This document shows, one piece after another, positions 1-59,778 of a DNA stretch of 64,000 nt. Under the pieces are notes generated by a model. That model ran no database searches. It was not told where the DNA came from and worked only from the letters and a program-made list of their open reading frames with translations. The stretch covers positions 58,724 through 122,723 of the forward strand of contig FR898166.1 in the NCBI GenBank assembly GCA_000437395.1, given 5' to 3'. The stretch's first letter is position 1. Each line of letters begins with the position of its first letter. A program made the translations under genes and the position numbers. This stretch comes from Clostridium sp. CAG:288. Lineage in GTDB: Bacteria > Bacillota_I > Bacilli_A > RFN20 > CAG-288.

Positions 1-2013
1 TTAGGCTTGGTTGGTCACGGTAACTGCATACGCTATGACTATGGTTTCTTCCGTCAAAAAATTAAAGATGGAAAACAAGAAGAAGTTCCAGATCAATGGT
101 TATTAAATGGTAACGCTTGGGAAATTAGAAAGCCTAAGCACGCTGTTGAAGTAAAATTCTATGGTAATGCTGAAACATATCAAGATGAAAATGGTTATGT
201 TAGAAGTCGTACAGTTAACGCTTTAACAGTTTTAGCTATTCCTTATGATATTCCAGTTATCGGTTATAGAAATGGTGTAACAAATACACTTAGACTTTGG
301 TATGCTGAACCAAGTGATGAAAATTTACCATCAAACCAAGACTTTACAGGCTATCTCCAATTCGTTAGAGATTTAACTCACGGCTTATATCCAGATGATT
401 CAACCGAACAAGGAAGACTTTTAAGATTGCGTCAACAATATTTCTTAGTATCTGCTGGTATGCAATCTATGTTAAGAGCTCACTATAGACACTATAAGAC
501 ATTCAAAAATCTTCCAGAACACTATGTCTTCCAACTTAACGATACACACCCAATCATGGCTATTCCAGAACTTATGAGACTCCTTATGGATGAACATAAC
601 TTCGGTTGGGATGAAGCTTTTGAAATATGTTCGAAGTGCTTTGCCTTTACTAACCACACAGTCATGGCTGAAGCTTTAGAAAAATGGCCATGCCACTATA
701 TTGCTAACCTCTTCCCACGTATCTATATGATCATCGAAGAGATTAACAGAAGAATGATTATTAAGATGAGAAATGAAAACCTTCCAGAAAACGTTATTCA
801 AAACTCCTTAATTATCAAAGATGGAAATGTTCATATGTGCCAAATGGCTATTCACGTTTGTTTCTCAGTAAACGGTGTTGCTAACTTGCACACTGAAATT
901 TTAAAAGCTGATACATTTAAAGAATTATATTCAATCTATCCAGAAAAATTTAATAACAAGACTAATGGTATTACACACAGACGTTGGTTCTTAGCTTCTA
1001 ACCCTGAATTATCAGGATTAGTAACATCTTTAATCGGTGATGGTTGGATTAAAAAGCCTGATGGACTTCAAAAACTTGCTAAATATCAAGACGATGAAGA
1101 AGTTTTAAAGAAGATTATTGAAATCAAACATCACAACAAAGAGAAACTAGCAGCTTTAATCAAGAAAGAAACAGGTATTGAAGTCGATACAAACTCTATT
1201 TTTGATACTCAAATTAAGAGATTACACGCTTATAAGAGACAACTTATGAATGTCTTTAGAATCATTCACTTATATAAGCGTATGAAAGCTTACAAGAACT
1301 TTAGAATAACGCCTCATACATATATCTTTGGAGCTAAAGCTGCTCCAAGCTACGTTTATGCTAAAAAGATTATCGAACTTATTTTAGCTGTTGCTGATAC
1401 AGTCAATAACGATCCAGAAATTTCAAAATATATGAAGGTAGTCTTTATTCCAAACTATGGAGTAAGTAAAGCTGAAGTAATTATTCCTGCTTCTGATGTT
1501 TCTGAACAAATCTCTACAGCTGGTAAGGAAGCTTCTGGTACATCTAACATGAAGTTTATGATTAATGGAGCTTTAACATTAGGAACTCTCGATGGAGCTA
1601 ACGTTGAAATCGATCAATTAGTCGGTTCAGAAAACGATGTTATCTTTGGTAAACACGCTGATGAACTCGATGAAATTAGATATAACAACTCTTATAATCC
1701 ATGGGATATCTATAACTCAGATATTAGAGTTAAAGTTGTCTTAGACTCTTTAGTCGACGGTACTTTCTCACCAAACCACGAAAAGTTCAGAATGATTTTC
1801 GATGAAGTTATGTATCACGGTGATGAATACTTCATTCTCCTTGACTTCGCAAGTTATCTTGAAGCAAGCAAGAAGATTGAATCGTTATATGCAGATCAAA
1901 TGTCATGGGCTAAGAAGTGTTTAATTAACATTTCTAAAGCTGGTTTCTTCTCATCAGATAGAACTATTAGCGAATACAATCGCGATATATGGCATCTTCA
2001 AAAGATTAAGTAA
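1..2013 (+). CDS. glgP: alpha-glucan (glycogen/maltodextrin) phosphorylase, GT35 family; 5' end lies outside the window
   Basis: The frame is open to the window start. The pyridoxal-phosphate site motif EASGTSNMKFMINGALTLGTLDGANVEI is characteristic of glycogen phosphorylases. The ORF-track protein is 668 aa and is N-terminally truncated. Confidence 0.9.
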   Translation, partial: LGLVGHGNCIRYDYGFFRQKIKDGKQEEVPDQWLLNGNAWEIRKPKHAVEVKFYGNAETYQDENGYVRSRTVNALTVLAIPYDIPVIGYRNGVTNTLRLWYAEPSDENLPSNQDFTGYLQFVRDLTHGLYPDDSTEQGRLLRLRQQYFLVSAGMQSMLRAHYRHYKTFKNLPEHYVFQLNDTHPIMAIPELMRLLMDEHNFGWDEAFEICSKCFAFTNHTVMAEALEKWPCHYIANLFPRIYMIIEEINRRMIIKMRNENLPENVIQNSLIIKDGNVHMCQMAIHVCFSVNGVANLHTEILKADTFKELYSIYPEKFNNKTNGITHRRWFLASNPELSGLVTSLIGDGWIKKPDGLQKLAKYQDDEEVLKKIIEIKHHNKEKLAALIKKETGIEVDTNSIFDTQIKRLHAYKRQLMNVFRIIHLYKRMKAYKNFRITPHTYIFGAKAAPSYVYAKKIIELILAVADTVNNDPEISKYMKVVFIPNYGVSKAEVIIPASDVSEQISTAGKEASGTSNMKFMINGALTLGTLDGANVEIDQLVGSENDVIFGKHADELDEIRYNNSYNPWDIYNSDIRVKVVLDSLVDGTFSPNHEKFRMIFDEVMYHGDEYFILLDFASYLEASKKIESLYADQMSWAKKCLINISKAGFFSSDRTISEYNRDIWHLQKIK

Positions 2014-52972: not shown

Positions 52973-54397
52973 CTACAAACCTAATATTAATTTGGCAAGG
53001 AGGAAATAAACAGCAAGTGAACTTACATCAAGTATTGTTGTAATTAAAGGTCCTGCCATCAATGCTGGGTCGAGGTGAATTAGCTTAGCTAGCATTGGTA
53101 ATGAGCTACCAAGAGTTTTAGCCATAACAATAATAAGATACATAGTCAATGAAACAAGGAGGGCTAAAAGCCATTCAGGGTAATTTGTAGCTCCACCTGT
53201 TGCATCGATAATGCCAGTTTTTAATTCTATAAATATCCAAGCAAAGTTGAAGGCAGAGATGAATAAGCCTGTGATTAAAGCTACTCTAAACTCTTTCCAT
53301 AAAACTTTTGGATAATCTGATAATTTTACTTCACCTAAAGCTAAAGCTCTTGTAACGACTGTTGTTGTTTGGTTACCAGCATTACCTGATGTATCCATTA
53401 GCATAGGAACAAATACCGTCAAAACTGGGACGACCATGAGCAAACTTTCAAAGTTATTTAATAAGAGTCCAGTAAGTGTGGCAGAGAGCATTAAGACTAA
53501 TAGCCATACAACTCTTGATTTAGCAAGTTTGAAGACTCCAGTTTTTAAATAAGGTGTATCAACAGGAGTGATAGCAGCCATCTTTTGCAAGTCTTCTGTG
53601 TTTTCTTCTTCAATAACGTCCATGACATCATCGAAAGTAATAATACCTAACAATCTTCCTTCAGTATTAACAACTGGTAAGACAGGAATATCATATTTTT
53701 TAAATATTCTAGCAACTTCTTCTTGGTCGGTATTTGTATAAACTTCTGTATAATCAGTGTTCATGATTTCAGTGATTGGAGTATCATCTTTAGCAAATAC
53801 TAGTTCTTCAAGAGAAAGAGTACCAATAAGCTTTCTTGATTCATCGACAACAAACGTTGTAGCTACTGTTTCTGCACCTTTACCAATGGACTTGATTTTG
53901 TCTAAAGCTTCTTTAGCTGTAGCTGTCTTTTTAATTTCGACATATTCACTGGTCATGATTGAACCAGCAGAGTCATCATTGTAATTTAAAAATCTATTGA
54001 TATTACCACGATTTTCTTTATCGGTAGCTTGCAAAACTTTAGAAACTAAGTTACTTGGCAACTCTTCGACAAAGTCGATCAAGTCATCGGTTGACATATC
54101 TCTAATTAAGTTTTGAATATCAGCTTCTGAGAAAGCCTCAACAATAGTTTGTTGTTGATCTTGATCAAGATATGAGAAAATTTCTGCTGTATATTCATTT
54201 TGAATAGTCTTAAACAAAAGGATAACGTCTCTTTTGTCTTCAGCTTGATCGTAGTCCATAAGCTTTATTGCATCAGCAACAACAATTGGAGAGTGGTCTT
54301 CAACAAGACTTCGTAGGGAAGTAAAATCCTTTTTTGCTATAAGTGATCTTATTTCTGCTAATAGTTGTTCACTATCGGTTATTTCTTCTTCGTTCAT
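52973..54397 (-). CDS. mgtE: magnesium transporter MgtE
   Basis: MgtE N-domain, tandem CBS domains and a C-terminal five-TM transporter domain. 474 aa. AGGAGG RBS. Confidence 0.9.
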   Translation of the reverse strand: MNEEEITDSEQLLAEIRSLIAKKDFTSLRSLVEDHSPIVVADAIKLMDYDQAEDKRDVILLFKTIQNEYTAEIFSYLDQDQQQTIVEAFSEADIQNLIRDMSTDDLIDFVEELPSNLVSKVLQATDKENRGNINRFLNYNDDSAGSIMTSEYVEIKKTATAKEALDKIKSIGKGAETVATTFVVDESRKLIGTLSLEELVFAKDDTPITEIMNTDYTEVYTNTDQEEVARIFKKYDIPVLPVVNTEGRLLGIITFDDVMDVIEEENTEDLQKMAAITPVDTPYLKTGVFKLAKSRVVWLLVLMLSATLTGLLLNNFESLLMVVPVLTVFVPMLMDTSGNAGNQTTTVVTRALALGEVKLSDYPKVLWKEFRVALITGLFISAFNFAWIFIELKTGIIDATGGATNYPEWLLALLVSLTMYLIIVMAKTLGSSLPMLAKLIHLDPALMAGPLITTILDVSSLAVYFLLAKLILGL

Positions 54398-54467: not shown

Positions 54468-54683
54468 TTATAATACTTTTACATAAATTTCTTTAACTTC
54501 GCTTTTATTTAAGTATAAAACAGAATCATCGAATAATATTACTATAAAGTTAAATGTTTTATATAATACTTCAACTAATTGATTTTCTCTTAATCCATAA
54601 TTATATAAATCATCATTTTTAATAGAATAAATAACACATTTTTTGTTGGTTTTAATAGAATTTAGGTTTACGATTTCTTCCAT
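54468..54683 (-). CDS. small FeoA-like (SH3-like) protein, tentative
   Basis: 71 aa. The pattern LNSIKTNKKCVIYSIKNDD...YGLRENQLVEVLYKT...LFDDSVLYLNKSEVKEIYVKV fits the FeoA domain spacing. The RBS is weak. Confidence 0.35.
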   Translation of the reverse strand: MEEIVNLNSIKTNKKCVIYSIKNDDLYNYGLRENQLVEVLYKTFNFIVILFDDSVLYLNKSEVKEIYVKVL

Positions 54684-54904
54684 AGTTAAATTAAAATATG
54701 CAACTAGTAATAAAATGGTTACTTTGCTTATATCTCATCAATTATGATTAGCTTAAAAGTGTTGTGCGCAAAAAATGGGCAATAAAGTAAAAAATGAACA
54801 AATGATATGCTTTCAATTATTGAAAAAAATTATCTTGTATGAGAAAATATAAACGATACCGAGCTTGCTCGGACAAATAATAAAGAAAGGTTAATAGGTA
54901 ACTT

Positions 54905-55597
54905 ATGGATTACTCCAAAGAAGTTAGCAACCAATGTATTGTTAATAAAGGTTGCGATCACGGCCCAGCACCAATCCCAGAAGAAGGTAGATGGGTCCTT
55001 GCTAAAGAGATTAAAGATATCTCTGGCCTCAGCCACGGTGTCGGCTGGTGTGCTCCTCAACAAGGTGCTTGTAAGTTAACATTAAATGTTAAAAACGGCA
55101 TCATCGAAGAAGCTCTCGTTGAGACTATCGGTTGTTCCGGTATGACTCACTCTGCAGCTATGGCTGTAGAAATTTTACAAGGAAAGACACTCCTTGAAGC
55201 TCTTAACACAGATCTTGTCTGCGATGCAATTAACGTTGCAATGCGCGAAATCTTTAAACAATTTGTTTATGGACGTACACAAACTGCTTTCTCAGAGAAC
55301 GGTCTTCCAGTTGGTTCATCATTAGATGACCTTGGTAAGAACATTCGTAGCCAAGTTGCTACAATGGTTGGCACAAAAGCAAAAGGCCCACGTTATCTTG
55401 AAATGACAGATGGTTATGTCTTAAAGCTTGGTCTCGATAGTCACGATGAAATTATCGGTTATCAATTTGTCAATCTCGGCAAAATGATGAACGCAATCCG
55501 TAGTGGTGTCGATCCAAAAGAAGCATATGAAAAAGCAATTGGTCAATATGGCCGCTTCAGTGAAGCAGTCAAGACTATTGACCCAAGAAAGGAGTAA
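54905..55597 (+). CDS. NifU/IscU-like N-terminal domain protein with C-terminal extension (Fe-S scaffold-like)
   Basis: Three conserved Cys in IscU-like contexts (GWCAPQQGAC, ETIGCSGMTHSAAMAVEILQGKTLLEAL, DLVCDAINVA), plus a ~100-aa C-terminal extension. Confidence 0.6.
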   Translation: MDYSKEVSNQCIVNKGCDHGPAPIPEEGRWVLAKEIKDISGLSHGVGWCAPQQGACKLTLNVKNGIIEEALVETIGCSGMTHSAAMAVEILQGKTLLEALNTDLVCDAINVAMREIFKQFVYGRTQTAFSENGLPVGSSLDDLGKNIRSQVATMVGTKAKGPRYLEMTDGYVLKLGLDSHDEIIGYQFVNLGKMMNAIRSGVDPKEAYEKAIGQYGRFSEAVKTIDPRKE

Positions 55598-55602
55598 TTT
55601 TT

Positions 55603-56607
55603 ATGGCTACATTTGAAAACTCCGAACGTCGTGCAGCTGGCATTGCCGCATGCTGTGCAAAATATGGCATCAAGGATTTAGACGAAGCAAGAGAAATTTG
55701 CTTAGCTCATGGAATTGATGTTGAAAAAATAGTTAAAGGTGTTCAACCAATTTGTTTCGATAACGCTGTTTGGGCTTATACACTTGGTGTTGCAATCGGC
55801 TTAAAAGAAGGTGTTAAGACAGCTGTTAAAGCTAGTGAACTTATTGGTGTTGGTCTCCAAGCTTTCTGTGTTCCTGGTTCTGTTGCCCAAGTTCGTGAAG
55901 TCGGCTTAGGTCATGGTAACTTAGGTGCTATGTTATTAAGTGAAGAAACAAAATGCTTCTGCTTCTTAGCAGGTCACGAATCATTTGCTGCTGCTGAAGG
56001 TGCAATTGGTATTGCTCGTAACGCAAACAAAGCAAGAAAAACTCCATTAAAGGTTATCTTAAATGGTTTAGGAAAAGATGCTGCTTACATCATTTCAAGA
56101 ATCAATGGTTTTACATATGTCCAAACAGATTATGATTTTGCAACATCTGAACTTAAGATTGTTAGAGAAGTTAAATTCTCTGATGGCGAAAGAGCCAACA
56201 TTCGTTGCTATGGTGCAAACGACGTTTCTGAAGGTGTTGCTATTATGCAATATGAAGATGTCGACGTTTCCATCACTGGTAACTCTACAAACCCAACTAG
56301 ATTCCAACATCCAGTTGCTGGTACATATAAAAACTGGGCTTGGTCTCATGGTAAGAAGTATTTCTCAGTCGCTTCAGGTGGCGGTACTGGTAGAACACTT
56401 CACCCAGACAACATGGCCGCTGGTCCATCTTCTTATGGCTTAACAGATACCATGGGAAGAATGCACGCTGATGCACAATTTGCTGGTTCTTCATCAGTTC
56501 CTGCTCACGTTGAAATGATGGGTCTCATCGGTATGGGTAATAACCCAATGGTCGGTGCCACAGTTAGCTGCGCAGTTGCTGTCTACGAAGCAAACAAAGA
56601 TAAGTAA
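55603..56607 (+). CDS. GGGtGRT family protein (conserved, function unknown)
   Basis: 334 aa containing the eponymous motif ASGGGTGRTLHPDNMAAGP. Family identity and its usual pairing with a NifU-like gene are from memory. Confidence 0.65.
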   Translation: MATFENSERRAAGIAACCAKYGIKDLDEAREICLAHGIDVEKIVKGVQPICFDNAVWAYTLGVAIGLKEGVKTAVKASELIGVGLQAFCVPGSVAQVREVGLGHGNLGAMLLSEETKCFCFLAGHESFAAAEGAIGIARNANKARKTPLKVILNGLGKDAAYIISRINGFTYVQTDYDFATSELKIVREVKFSDGERANIRCYGANDVSEGVAIMQYEDVDVSITGNSTNPTRFQHPVAGTYKNWAWSHGKKYFSVASGGGTGRTLHPDNMAAGPSSYGLTDTMGRMHADAQFAGSSSVPAHVEMMGLIGMGNNPMVGATVSCAVAVYEANKDK

Positions 56608-56618
56608 AATTAATAATT

Positions 56619-56678
56619 AGAGCTTAATTCAAAAGTAATACTGTAATCAGTTATTTCTTAAGAGTTAAGCTCTTTTTA
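56619..56678 (+). terminator. putative terminator after the NifU-like/GGGtGRT operon
   Basis: AGAGCTTAA ... TTAAGCTCT stem with a long loop, followed by TTTTT. Confidence 0.4.
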
Positions 56679-56768
56679 TATGCTTTATTTATTTTTTGGG
56701 GCATTTTAACAAAAAAAGTAGGATTTTGTCGAAATTTTCCCATATATAAAATAGGAGGATAGACAGAA

Positions 56769-57149
56769 ATGACTTATAAAGAAATGTCTAAAGAATTAAA
56801 AGAGATTGCTAAGACTTACAATAGAAGCTTACAAGATCTAATTGTAAATGGCGCACAAATTAAAGAAGGATTTTTATTTGATCCATCTAAAAGAAATGAT
56901 GAGTACGCGTTTTTCCAGTTTAAGGGAACAAACTCATCGACAATTAACGCTGAAAGGTTTGTTTTAAGTGTCAATTTTGCTCTGACATGTCTAAAAACTG
57001 AATATAGAACAATCTTATGGCACGATTATTTCCGCAAAGCAGAAAATGGATGGTGGATTTCTTATTTTTCTAAAACATCGTATTATCGAAATAGACGAGA
57101 GGCAGTAAAAGAATTTATGGAGATAAAAATGGATGCTAACAACTTTTAA
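56769..57149 (+). CDS. small sigma-70 region-4-like transcriptional regulator (ArpU/RinA-type phage-like activator)
   Basis: 126 aa. The C-terminal LKTEYRTILWHDYFRKAENGWWISYFSKTSYYRNRREAVKEF matches the sigma region 4 HTH spacing. AGGAGGA RBS. Confidence 0.5.
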   Translation: MTYKEMSKELKEIAKTYNRSLQDLIVNGAQIKEGFLFDPSKRNDEYAFFQFKGTNSSTINAERFVLSVNFALTCLKTEYRTILWHDYFRKAENGWWISYFSKTSYYRNRREAVKEFMEIKMDANNF

Positions 57150-57867
57150 GAATAGTTTATCTATTTTATTCTTTTTGCCTTTATTAGTTTTTGATCAAAA
57201 TAATAATCATGTTTCTGATATAAAAATTAAAACTGTTGATAATGGATATGAAGTTTCTTTTATTGCTAATAGTTTGATTGATGAGACTTTAAAAGTTACA
57301 TATAAAGAAAACATTAAAATATTGTGCGATAATTTAGGAAAAAATAATTATTCGTTTATTATCAATTTTCATGAATTTGATGGTGGAAATGATAACATTT
57401 ATTTTTATTTAGGCGATGATGTTTTTAATGCTAATGTCATAAATTATATAAATAACGAATTTAATAAAAAAACAGATTATATATTTACTCGTCCTATAGG
57501 CATAGATACAAATTCGAAATTTATTTATGAAACTTTAATTATTGAACCGCTCGAATTTGAATTGTGGTCAAATTGTAATTATTATGTTGGTCCAATTGTT
57601 AAGTTTAAGTCAAATAAAGATTATGAAGAAATAAAAGATTATTGCTTTTCTGTAACAACAAAAACTTTTAGTAAAAATTTAAAGATAGTTAAAGATCTGG
57701 ATAATTATATGCTTGCTTTGGATTATATAAATGTCAGTTTGAATAACGAACTTTTAGACTATTCTATAAATTTTAATGATCAAATACTTGTTAGAGGAAA
57801 AATATTATCACATAAAACTTTTGATAGCAAAAATGGAATAGGTGAATATGAAATACATCAAATTTAA
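57133..57867 (+). CDS. secreted or membrane-anchored hypothetical protein
   Basis: 244 aa with N-terminal hydrophobic signal LSILFFLPLLVF. About 21% GC. Overlaps the upstream gene by 17 nt. Confidence 0.5.
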   Translation: MLTTFKNSLSILFFLPLLVFDQNNNHVSDIKIKTVDNGYEVSFIANSLIDETLKVTYKENIKILCDNLGKNNYSFIINFHEFDGGNDNIYFYLGDDVFNANVINYINNEFNKKTDYIFTRPIGIDTNSKFIYETLIIEPLEFELWSNCNYYVGPIVKFKSNKDYEEIKDYCFSVTTKTFSKNLKIVKDLDNYMLALDYINVSLNNELLDYSINFNDQILVRGKILSHKTFDSKNGIGEYEIHQI

Positions 57868-58198
57868 TTTGTCTTTTTTAATTATATTCATCGGTTTGAA
57901 TTATATATATTTCAATTTTGGTAAAAATAAATTTAATTTTCAAATTGAAAGTTTTTTAAAAGAGAATTTAAAAAAAGCATTTTTAGACAATGTTGTTTTT
58001 GTTGATGAAAAACCAATGATTGATTCAGATAATTTAATAAAAGAATATAGTTATTTAGTTTATCAAAAATATAGAGAAGCTGAAATAACACAAATTTACA
58101 TTGATGATGAATATAAAAAATATGTATATAGCATTAAAGAGATAGTAACTATAGATGAAGTTAAATATGAGGTTGGGTATGGAATTAAAGAAAAGTAA
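57848..58198 (+). CDS. small N-terminally anchored membrane protein, hypothetical
   Basis: TM FNLSFLIIFIGLNYIYF followed by an ~85-aa charged domain. Overlaps the upstream gene by 20 nt. Confidence 0.45.
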   Translation: MKYIKFNLSFLIIFIGLNYIYFNFGKNKFNFQIESFLKENLKKAFLDNVVFVDEKPMIDSDNLIKEYSYLVYQKYREAEITQIYIDDEYKKYVYSIKEIVTIDEVKYEVGYGIKEK

Positions 58199-58844
58199 GA
58201 TTAAATTTTATCTTTCTATAGTTATAGCTATTTTGGTTTGGTTGTTGTTTTTATATGTAAATATAAGAAATTATATAAACATTTTTATTATTGTTATAGG
58301 AACTTTAAGTGTTGTTTTATTTTCTAGTTTGTATTATTCAGTTTTAAAATCATATTATGTTAGAACATGTTCTTTCGCTTTTGCGCGTTCTTTATTATTT
58401 AATTTAAAATGGGGCGCAAATTATAAAGAAAGTTTAGAAGCAAGTTGTGAAAAAATAAAAGGCATAAATATTAATATTTCATTAGAAGACACATCTCTTT
58501 CATTGGAGTTCAAGAAACTAAAGTTAGGTTATTTAAATTCGTTAATTACTACTATTATAGACAGCGCTAATAATGGTAAAAAGCTTTTTATAAGAAGTAT
58601 GTCAATCGATTATATTTTAAAAAAGGAAATAGATAAAAAAAACGAAATTGAGTTAAATTTATCAAATACTTTATCCGCGTTTTTACAAATTAACTGTATT
58701 AATTTGATTTTGTTTTTTATGTGCGTAATAAATCAAAGCTTTGAAATAATAATTTCAAATTCGATTATGTATATTTGGCTAATAATCATATTAAGTAACT
58801 TATGCTTCACATTAGTTTTAAATGGTATTAAAGGAGAAATATAA
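58179..58844 (+). CDS. polytopic membrane protein (two N-terminal TMs, helical cytoplasmic domain, C-terminal TMs)
   Basis: GAGGT RBS 5 nt before ATG 58179. Hydrophobic segments YLSIVIAILVWLLFLY, IFIIVIGTLSVVLFSSLYY and C-terminal INLILFFMCVI ... IWLIIILSNLCFTLVL. The topology resembles GspF/TadB-type platform proteins (inference). Confidence 0.5.
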   Translation: MELKKSKIKFYLSIVIAILVWLLFLYVNIRNYINIFIIVIGTLSVVLFSSLYYSVLKSYYVRTCSFAFARSLLFNLKWGANYKESLEASCEKIKGININISLEDTSLSLEFKKLKLGYLNSLITTIIDSANNGKKLFIRSMSIDYILKKEIDKKNEIELNLSNTLSAFLQINCINLILFFMCVINQSFEIIISNSIMYIWLIIILSNLCFTLVLNGIKGEI

Positions 58845-59458
58845 TGAAAAATAAGATTAAAATAGAAAAAGAAGAAAAGTATTATTTATTTATAATTTTA
58901 ATTGGGATAGTTTTAACTTTCTTAATTTATTATTTTTATCGTCAGTTTTATTTATCGTTAGTTCCATTACTTGTTTCACTTAGCGTTTCTTTTATTCTTT
59001 TTTATTTCAATAGTGAATTGAAGAAAAGAAAAGTAGAAAAAAAAGCTGAATCAATGCTAGGTTTTTATATGAGCATCAATCAACAGTTAACTTTAGGCAA
59101 TTCTTTTAAAGATAGCGCCATAAAAGCTATTAGCGAGATTGTTGATGAAAATTTAAAGAAAGATATACAAGAATATTTTAACGAGGAGAATGTTGGATCT
59201 GGTGTTTTAGATATTTCAATCTTAAATACTGATACAGAAAAAGAGTTATGTAGCTTGTTTTTATATGGAATAACTCATCAAATAAACGCTGAATTTAAAG
59301 ATAATTTTTTTCAACTTTGTGATATGTATAAAGATGAAGTTAATATTAAAATTGGCAATAAAAAGAATTACGAAAAGTATATTGAGTATATAAGTGTATT
59401 TGTGACTTTGATAATTGCTATTTTATTAACTTATAAGCTTTTTAACTCATTATTATGA
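58844..59458 (+). CDS. polytopic membrane protein, same architecture as the upstream gene
   Basis: AAAGGAGA RBS. TAATG overlap with the upstream stop. TMs YLFIILIGIVLTFLIYYF, LVPLLVSLSVSFILFYF and C-terminal ISVFVTLIIAILLTY. The central helical domain has a GspF-like F...L..G.S...A pattern. Confidence 0.5.
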   Translation: MKNKIKIEKEEKYYLFIILIGIVLTFLIYYFYRQFYLSLVPLLVSLSVSFILFYFNSELKKRKVEKKAESMLGFYMSINQQLTLGNSFKDSAIKAISEIVDENLKKDIQEYFNEENVGSGVLDISILNTDTEKELCSLFLYGITHQINAEFKDNFFQLCDMYKDEVNIKIGNKKNYEKYIEYISVFVTLIIAILLTYKLFNSLL

Positions 59459-59778
59459 ATAAAAATTTATATATAAATCTAATAGTTTCTTTGATATTTA
59501 TTTTGATAATTTATGATTTTTATAGCTTATCAAAATATAAAGAATTATTGCAAAACTGTATGGAAGTAACAAACAAGTGTTTATTTGAAAATAAAAATCC
59601 TAATGAATACTTACCTACTAACACAAAGTATACGTGCAATACGAATTGTGAATACGAAAGTGGAAGAGTAGTAGAATATAAATTAAGTGTTAAATCTTCT
59701 TTTTTTATTAATCCTTTTCAAAAAGAGGTTAGTGAAACGTATTATTATTTTGTATCTGATGTAAAGTTTTACGAATGA
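59455..59778 (+). CDS. small membrane-anchored protein with a four-Cys extracytoplasmic domain
   Basis: ATGA overlap with the upstream stop. TM LYINLIVSLIFILIIY, then CMEVTNKC...YTCNTNCEY (4 Cys). Confidence 0.4.
   Translation: MNKNLYINLIVSLIFILIIYDFYSLSKYKELLQNCMEVTNKCLFENKNPNEYLPTNTKYTCNTNCEYESGRVVEYKLSVKSSFFINPFQKEVSETYYYFVSDVKFYE

Follow-up and report, generated by a model that had tools for sequence, protein, structure and literature searches.

An IscU-fold/GGGtGRT gene pair from Clostridium sp. CAG:288 that probably encodes a two-subunit, iron-dependent protein abundant in anaerobes

The GGGtGRT locus of Clostridium sp. CAG:288

The stretch of DNA analyzed here (the window) comprises 64,000 nt of contig FR898166.1 (positions 58,724–122,723) from Clostridium sp. 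CAG:288 and contains two consecutive open reading frames (ORFs), designated ORF1 and ORF2, which encode a protein with an IscU-like fold and a member of the GGGtGRT family (PF14057), respectively (Table 1). Their products are identical to CDE16683.1 and CDE16684.1, with consecutive accessions for this gut bacterium. A previous annotation made from the letters of the sequence alone (the sequence-only reading) had described proteins of 230 and 334 amino acids (aa) whose genes are 5 nt apart, and these coordinates and lengths were exact (gap at 55598–55602). The Shine-Dalgarno sequence of ORF2 is located inside the 3′ end of ORF1, and the two genes are therefore translationally coupled. Downstream of ORF2, the terminator-like structure noticed in the sequence-only reading was substantiated by RNA folding, with a free energy of −24.3 kcal/mol (z = −5.56) that was equalled by none of 200 shuffled sequences.

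The pair has a GC content of 0.42, vs. 0.30 for the window, which had been taken as a sign of high expression. The excess is real, but ORF1 and ORF2 rank at the top of the 44 long ORFs both in the GC of the first two codon positions and in their content of Gly, Ala, Arg, and Pro (0.25 and 0.31, respectively, vs. typically 0.1–0.2); GC at position 3 is moderately raised (0.32 in ORF1, the highest of the 44, and 0.26 in ORF2, with a median of 0.20). Since it is mostly found at codon positions 1 and 2, the excess reflects amino acid composition, and it is mainly the footprint of a constrained Gly/Ala-rich protein and not a gauge of expression levels. The support for high expression comes from the proteomics of homologs (see below).

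Table 1. Features of the GGGtGRT locus and of related loci. Positions are those of the window (nt), of the respective protein (aa) or, for the divergent clade, of the locus indicated.
Feature	Position	Strand	Details
ORF1	54905–55597	+	230 aa
ORF1 IscU-fold domain	aa ~41–122		Holds C49, C56, C77, C106, and His44
ORF1 linker	aa 122–149		Highly conserved, YGRTQTAFSE..DLGK
ORF1 C-terminal domain	aa 150–230		Beta-rich
ORF2	55603–56607	+	334 aa, PF14057 GGGtGRT protein
ORF2 N-domain	aa 1–115		Helical
ORF2 alpha/beta domain	aa 118–256		Rossmann-like; invariant strand-GLGKDAA-helix unit, GxGxxA-like
ORF2 loop	aa 257–305		Almost invariant, Gly/His/Asp-rich; SGGGTGRTLHPDN..GRMH..AGSSSVPAHVE; conserved pattern in aa 259–299, SGGGTGRTLHPDN..SYG.TD..GR.H..QFAGSSSVPAHVE
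ORF2 C-terminal part	after the aa 257–305 loop		GMGNNPMVG motif and C-terminal helix
ORF2 Shine-Dalgarno	55589–55594	+	AAGGAG, within the last codons of ORF1 and 8 nt 5′ of the ORF2 ATG
Candidate sigma-70-type promoter	54820–54848	+	TTGAAA-17-GAAAAT with TG extension, ~57 nt upstream of ORF1; 9/12 in consensus scan
Palindrome	54859–54872	+	Perfect, CCGAGC-TT-GCTCGG, GC-rich within an AT-rich spacer, putative ORF1 5′ leader; from sequence reading
Intrinsic terminator	56613–56685	+	Long hairpin (56613–56679) followed by UUUUUAU; RNA fold
FeoA-like ORF	54468–54683	−	71 aa; PF04023, 22.4 bits (cut-off 23); GC 0.185
mgtE	52973–54397	−	TIGR00400, 441 bits
Divergent-clade five-gene loci	L168:581–6589; L171:2997–7606; L172:650–5259		

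Co-occurrence of ORF1 and ORF2

We surveyed the surroundings of the pair starting from ORF2 in the best 80 loci in species genomes and, separately, starting from ORF1 in 80 metagenome loci. An ORF1 homolog was found directly upstream of the GGGtGRT gene, on the same strand and with a gap of 15–138 nt, in 76 of the 80 genome loci; since the remaining four lie too close to a contig end to hold ORF1, this amounts to 76 of 76 assessable loci. Likewise, ORF2 directly follows ORF1 in 72 of the 80 metagenome loci (approximately 74 of the 75 assessable), the other eight being two cases with a longer gap or a diverged 5′ end, five without room for the gene, and a short contig for which the case was undecided. 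The adjacency to NifU_N-type genes that the sequence-only reading had put forward, and the co-conservation of both genes, thus extend to nearly all the assessable loci. The distance between both genes is mostly 14–28 nt in 71 other pairs.

Adjacency and gene order are kept in one archaeon and in bacteria from at least eight phyla, including Vibrio, and in the most divergent clade of the family. Both genes also diverge together: the identities of ORF1 and ORF2 are 73 and 74%, respectively, for the archaeal copy, 68 and 71% for Vibrio, and 56 and 52% for the divergent clade. No third gene recurred beside the pair, with that for SecA as the commonest neighbor (8/80 loci), and we found no genes for FeoA, MgtE, rubrerythrin, or rubredoxin near the pair in the 160 other loci. 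As no third gene recurs and the metal-related neighbors of the window are absent elsewhere, the conserved unit is the bicistron alone.

The ORF1 product has an IscU fold with a four-Cys site

Profile alignment to IscU from E. coli (probability of 87%) indicated that the ORF1 product has the alpha+beta core fold of this scaffold. The three-Cys signature of IscU, which the sequence-only reading had assigned to ORF1, was not recovered: the positions invariant in 72 sequences of the family are H44, C49, C56, C77, and C106, that is, four Cys residues, and C77 is the sole Cys that aligns with a canonical IscU ligand (Cys63). In the same alignment, Cys37 and Asp39 from IscU correspond to Gln53 and Ala55, respectively. 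The loop bearing Cys37 in IscU is bordered in ORF1 by C49 and C56; C106 starts the last helix of the core and lies in a shortened segment. The IscU segment AEELELPPVKIH, of around 12 residues and located before Cys106, is absent from ORF1, in which NTDL runs into VC106D; because of this, the protein lacks both the LPPVK chaperone motif and His105. Additionally, C11, H19, and H82 are conserved at 92–99% in the 72 sequences, and strong conservation extends across aa 122–145, in the linker that follows the IscU-fold domain; the conserved residues 125–149 could not be modelled in isolation.

The match of ORF1 to Pfam NifU_N reaches 24 bits (cut-off 22) and is restricted to aa 56–102, covering 51 of the 127 model positions, while the NCBIfam models were all far below their cut-offs, with 22.9 bits for IscU (cut-off 192.4), 26.8 for NifU_clost (187.9), 15.9 for NifU (273.3), and 20.5 for SufU (92.5). 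Even at E ≤ 10, nothing in Pfam matched the C-terminal 120 residues.

A cysteine desulfurase homolog was found within ±3–5 kb of the pair in only 1 of the 160 loci, and this single locus also encodes a separate canonical IscU. Because it lacks Cys37, Asp39, and LPPVK, because desulfurase genes are so rarely nearby and because Collinsella carries SufU in addition to the pair, we conclude that ORF1 has an IscU fold whose site was rebuilt with four Cys residues and is not the assembly scaffold of the cell.

The ORF2 product is a full-length GGGtGRT protein

The assignment of ORF2 to PF14057, put forward in the sequence-only reading, was upheld from end to end (E-value of 2.5e-187; 622 bits with a cut-off of 27; profile positions 1–327 of 327), with the GGGTGRT motif at aa 259–265 and a length within that of the family (~316–340 aa). 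It was the only Pfam family matched by the whole protein, there were no matches in NCBIfam, and three sub-regions searched separately against Pfam at E ≤ 10 retrieved no other family. Similarly, we found no match in the PDB by sequence, profile or whole fold, and no PP-loop family at any threshold. The family had been described as one of unknown function, in agreement with these searches, which retrieved no characterized family from Pfam, NCBIfam or the PDB, and with papers from 2024 and 2025 (PMC11204068; PMC12078515); we found no functional study of the family in the literature surveyed.

The protein is Gly/Ala-rich (38 Gly and 43 Ala), and around 150 of its polar and Gly residues are near-invariant; H104, H125, H267, H288, and H302 are invariant, as are several Asp and Glu residues. 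The AF2 model had a predicted local distance difference test (pLDDT) of 81 and a predicted template modeling score of 0.82, and shows a helical domain followed by a Rossmann-like domain, a long loop, and a C-terminal helix (Table 1). Residues 259–299 in the loop, where the conservation of the protein is highest, have a pLDDT below 50. Highly conserved segments that cannot be modelled alone are thus present in both proteins, as would be expected if they fold upon a partner or cofactor.

Conservation, distribution and horizontal transfer

ORF1 and ORF2 have thousands of homologs each, with around 80% identity. An exhaustive phmmer search with ORF2 against 1.84 billion representatives clustered at 50% identity retrieved 1783 matches, all of them from the family itself and almost all fragments or chimeras, and around three full-length representatives (70% and 52% identical, plus one that is frameshifted). 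The small number of full-length representatives indicates that the whole family is more than ~50% identical and lacks detectable distant relatives. The long representatives that could be taken for gene fusions (P0241, P0249, P0260, P0309, and P0242) proved to be chimeras created by assembly or frameshifts and not natural fusions. In the chimeric representatives, which also include P0368, a GGGtGRT C-terminus is preceded by a partial duplication or by an N-terminus of ABC-ATPase, Tex-like or SusD-like type, and because of them the family looks more diverse at 50% clustering than it is.

Identity to the window remained high across phyla, at 70–80%: 70% in Akkermansia, 71% in Vibrio and Desulfobacteraceae, 72% in Collinsella, 76% in Bacteroidaceae, 77% in Melainabacteria, and 78% in Elusimicrobia. 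When compared with SecA from the same contigs, the pair showed a median pairwise identity of 0.81, vs. 0.67, and was the more conserved in 28 of 28 comparisons.

The archaeal copy was found in a metagenome-assembled genome (MAG) of Methanobacteriaceae (GCA_030539685.1, L173:3296–4999), and both of its products align with those from the window without gaps. The contig has 29% GC, and the pair is flanked by genes for an archaeal-type DNA ligase, ThiC, a DUF2099 protein, and rubredoxin. The 73–74% identity of this copy is far above the expectation for vertical inheritance between domains, which implies that the two-gene module was transferred as a unit and that the purifying selection acting on it is very strong. 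We considered plasmids and phages as the route of spread, but the pair is not usually carried by either; the exceptions were 10 large non-mobilizable replicons and six unverified virome contigs. The pair is not strictly confined to gut anaerobes, since it also occurs in marine bacteria of facultative or aerobic lineages, namely Vibrio sp. THAF191d (L178, in a 1.85-Mb replicon) and Persicobacter (H6 and H10). These copies lie on large secondary replicons.

Published expression and phenotypes of homologs

Published data link the pair to iron. Expression of BT0173-74 from B. thetaiotaomicron (GGGtGRT and “NifU”) drops 11–13-fold in iron-depleted medium (PMC10434189). With excess iron, the adjacent genes F502_05012 (GGGtGRT) and F502_05017 (NifU-related) from C. 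pasteurianum yielded 7.1-fold and 2.4–3.7-fold higher levels, respectively, and both products were seen on 2-D gels (PMC5395762). The link to Fe-S or metal proposed in the sequence-only reading is consistent with this iron-dependent expression and with the four invariant Cys residues on an IscU fold. GGGtGRT homologs are highly abundant in published proteomics and recurrent in metaproteomes, and the protein from Segatella copri is an intracellular antigen of ~35 kDa. A pyruvoyl-type self-processing at the AGSSS sequence of ORF2, considered as a candidate, is not supported by this native band, which is a weak test.

A screen of B. thetaiotaomicron for mutants in which glucose no longer silences the regulator Cur yielded transposon insertions in BT0173-4 as well as in pfkA; the effect was 2-fold, and the mutants grew on glucose like the wild type (bioRxiv 10.64898/2026.04.10.717545).

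A divergent clade with a five-gene arrangement

Approximately 20 clusters form a divergent GGGtGRT clade, 52–57% identical to the main clade. In two organisms that carry a member of this clade, the genes are ordered as an ApgM-type phosphoglycerate mutase (NCBIfam equivalog, 517 bits, cut-off 489), an ORF1-like gene, the GGGtGRT gene, a membrane-anchored protein, and a His_Phos_1 protein. The ORF1-like product, of 222 aa, keeps the four Cys residues and misses the N-terminal 19 residues, and its gene overlaps that for GGGtGRT; the membrane-anchored protein (317–326 aa) has no family match and is 50% identical between both organisms, and the flanking proteins in general are only around 50% identical. 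Together with the recovery of pfkA in the Bacteroides screen, this synteny hints that the pair might act on a phosphorylated small molecule, from lower glycolysis.

Upstream sequences and flanking genes

The intergenic region upstream of ORF1 spans 221 nt, and no Rfam family, riboswitch or tRNA was found in the window. The candidate promoter (Table 1) is weak, because such sites are no more numerous in the region than in shuffled sequences. The palindrome downstream from it, which a scan flagged as resembling a terminator on the minus strand, might serve as an operator or as a stabilizing 5′ hairpin. We also scanned the 250 nt upstream of the ORF1 homologs from loci L008–L167, and found no enrichment in operator motifs for Fur, PerR, FNR/CRP, HcpR, cre or Zur. 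A Rex-box-like sequence, TTGTTAANNNNTTAACAA (≤2 mismatches), was present at about −105 to −125 in 11 of 139 loci, vs. one to three in shuffled or reversed controls, which is a weak hint of a possible redox (NADH/NAD+) control of the pair in some Clostridia; the window itself has no Rex-like box. The k-mer GCAAAAA was enriched upstream of ORF1 homologs with no common context.

On the other side of this region, and in the opposite strand, the FeoA-like ORF lies directly upstream of a bona fide mgtE gene, with no feoB in view; a FeoA-like domain ahead of a gene for an Mg2+ channel is an unusual arrangement. The sequence-only reading had viewed this as a metal-homeostasis neighborhood; although the divergent FeoA-like and mgtE genes are indeed there, their absence from all the other loci surveyed reveals the neighborhood to be peculiar to the genome of Clostridium sp. 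CAG:288 and coincidental. Downstream of the pair (56769–59778, plus strand), a cluster is headed by a gene of the MG284/MPN403 family (NCBIfam NF045770, 70.6 bits; product of 126 aa), which suggests a Mollicutes-like bacterium with a reduced genome, within the Bacilli. Behind this gene come five ORFs of 244, 118, 229, 204, and 107 aa that overlap or are tightly packed, with a very low GC content (0.20–0.23), strongly positive GC skew, hydrophobic N-termini, and no Pfam matches.

A probable two-subunit iron-dependent protein

The interpretation that we favor, with a probability of around 60%, is that the pair encodes an obligate two-subunit, iron-dependent and probably Fe-S protein, serving anaerobes as an abundant redox enzyme or carrier. 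ORF1 and ORF2 would be the two subunits of a single cytoplasmic protein, made abundantly by anaerobes; we infer the complex, its binding of a cluster, and its redox role. ORF1 would re-use the IscU fold with its metal site rebuilt from the four invariant Cys residues, possibly holding a permanent [2Fe-2S] or [4Fe-4S] cluster or else a single-metal tetrathiolate site; a permanent site is suggested by the loss of Cys37, Asp39, and LPPVK, which a transient scaffold needs. ORF2 would supply the helical domain, a Rossmann-like domain of the type that binds nucleotides or phosphate, and the loop of ~45 almost invariant residues. This loop and the linker of ORF1 may order each other around a ligand, forming a functional site at the subunit interface. 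More tentatively, we consider it possible, if doubtful, that the pair represents an unrecognized class of two-subunit metalloenzymes of anaerobes, in which the four-Cys Fe-S (or metal) site of ORF1 and the invariant GGGtGRT loop would make up a composite active site, with a nucleotide or a phosphorylated central-carbon metabolite as the substrate. If true, this would explain the abundance of the protein, its control by iron, the link to glucose signaling in Bacteroides, and the synteny with phosphoglycerate mutase.

Some of our results weigh against the proposal of a two-subunit iron-dependent enzyme or carrier. None of the nine Cys residues of ORF2 is invariant across the family, implying that any cluster would be carried by ORF1 alone or ligated by His or Asp, and the structure model of ORF1 was moderate (pLDDT of 67). 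Genes for phosphoglycerate mutase or His-phosphatase were near none of the main-clade pairs (0/160), their synteny being exclusive to the rare divergent clade. Additionally, the effect of the B. thetaiotaomicron mutations is modest and could be indirect.

A dedicated or alternative system for the assembly, storage or delivery of Fe-S clusters, with ORF1 as a true scaffold and ORF2 as a nucleotide-dependent carrier or chaperone that hands clusters to abundant Fe-S enzymes of anaerobes, would agree with the IscU fold and partial NifU_N match of ORF1, with the names “NifU” or “Fe-S cluster assembly scaffold” that it bears in public annotations, with the Gly-rich, phosphate-loop-like motifs of ORF2, and with an abundant product whose expression rises with iron. 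We nevertheless regard it as unlikely: Gln and Ala stand in place of the scaffold residues Cys37 and Asp39, the segment with LPPVK and His105 has been lost, all the NCBIfam scaffold models score 16–27 bits against cut-offs of 92–273, ligation by four Cys suggests a fixed site, the sole locus with a desulfurase has its own canonical IscU, as Collinsella has its SufU, and the BT0173-4 mutants are viable and grow normally on glucose. The absence of a desulfurase partner, the SufU score, and the lack of a PP-loop match likewise argue against a sulfur relay in which ORF1 would be a SufU/SufE-like persulfide carrier and ORF2 would activate a substrate with a nucleotide for the insertion of sulfur into a metabolite, cofactor or tRNA; an abundance at the level of central metabolism is also atypical of modification enzymes, making this option quite improbable.

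The response to iron, high when replete and low when poor, and the great abundance of the product are also those of storage proteins, and a ferritin- or rubrerythrin-like role in buffering iron or sulfur, or in protection from oxidative stress when iron is plentiful, might be favored by the rubrerythrin gene adjoining the pair in A. thermocellum and by that for rubredoxin in the Methanobacteriaceae MAG. Such neighbors are nevertheless missing from the 160 other loci, there is no ferritin-like or di-iron motif nor any match to such families, and the near-invariant polar and Gly residues of ORF2 resemble a catalytic or cofactor site and not a storage shell, so we deem this role improbable. Finally, that ORF1 and ORF2 are mere neighbors with unrelated functions is contradicted by their strict adjacency and order across phyla, their co-divergence, and their translational coupling, and we give it hardly any credit.

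Pfam and NCBI already list the family to which this locus belongs as a typical member. To this, our analysis adds a quantification of the inseparability of the pair and the failure of its “NifU” partner to show most features of IscU membership, as well as the extreme conservation, the transfer between domains, the conserved segments that cannot be modelled, and the divergent cluster of phosphoglycerate-mutase type. The pair is among the most conserved and abundant proteins of unknown function from gut and rumen anaerobes, occurring in Clostridia, Bacteroidota, Akkermansia, Collinsella, Melainabacteria, and methanogens, and it is retained even by a bacterium with no contig longer than ~1.65 Mb in the collection. 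Knowing its function would close a visible gap in how anaerobic metabolism and iron economy are modelled and would reveal a new use of the IscU fold. Both genes should be studied together, with the four Cys residues of ORF1 and defined invariant residues in the loop of ORF2 as targets for mutation; B. thetaiotaomicron (BT0173-74), A. thermocellum, and C. pasteurianum (F502_05012/05017) are tractable hosts for which there are mutants or data.

Comparison with known systems

As compared to the scaffolds with an IscU/NifU N-terminal domain (PF01592, TIGR01999), ORF1 differs by the changes Cys37 to Gln and Asp39 to Ala and by the deletion of LPPVK and His105, and it adds two invariant Cys residues (C49 and C56) and a conserved extension of 120 aa; it also lacks a desulfurase or HscAB partner, its obligate partner being the GGGtGRT protein. 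Unlike SufU and SufE, it scores below the SufU cut-off and is not adjacent to SufS, and genomes hold a separate SufU. ORF2, in turn, is a textbook full-length member of PF14057, a family with no assigned function, structure or clan. The GTP loops of FtsZ/tubulin, GGGTG[ST]G and GAGANPEVG, resemble GGGTGRT and GMGNNPMVG from ORF2, although in the opposite order; kinship was rejected (hhalign probability of 0.9%, with FtsZ not among the fold matches), and this likeness is a resemblance only. The best Foldseek match of ORF2 was to the prismane fold of Ni,Fe-carbon monoxide dehydrogenase (CODH) and hybrid-cluster protein (Hcp), in which a metal cluster is surrounded by a helical domain and Rossmann-like domains, with a collinear helical plus alpha/beta arrangement, and kinship was equally rejected (E-value of 3.8e-3, probability of 0.85, TM score of 0.29; 0.5% in hhalign to Hcp). 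In contrast to CODH and Hcp, ORF2 has no invariant Cys as cluster ligand; these proteins and the pair are alike in being anaerobe-specific, iron-dependent, and abundant.

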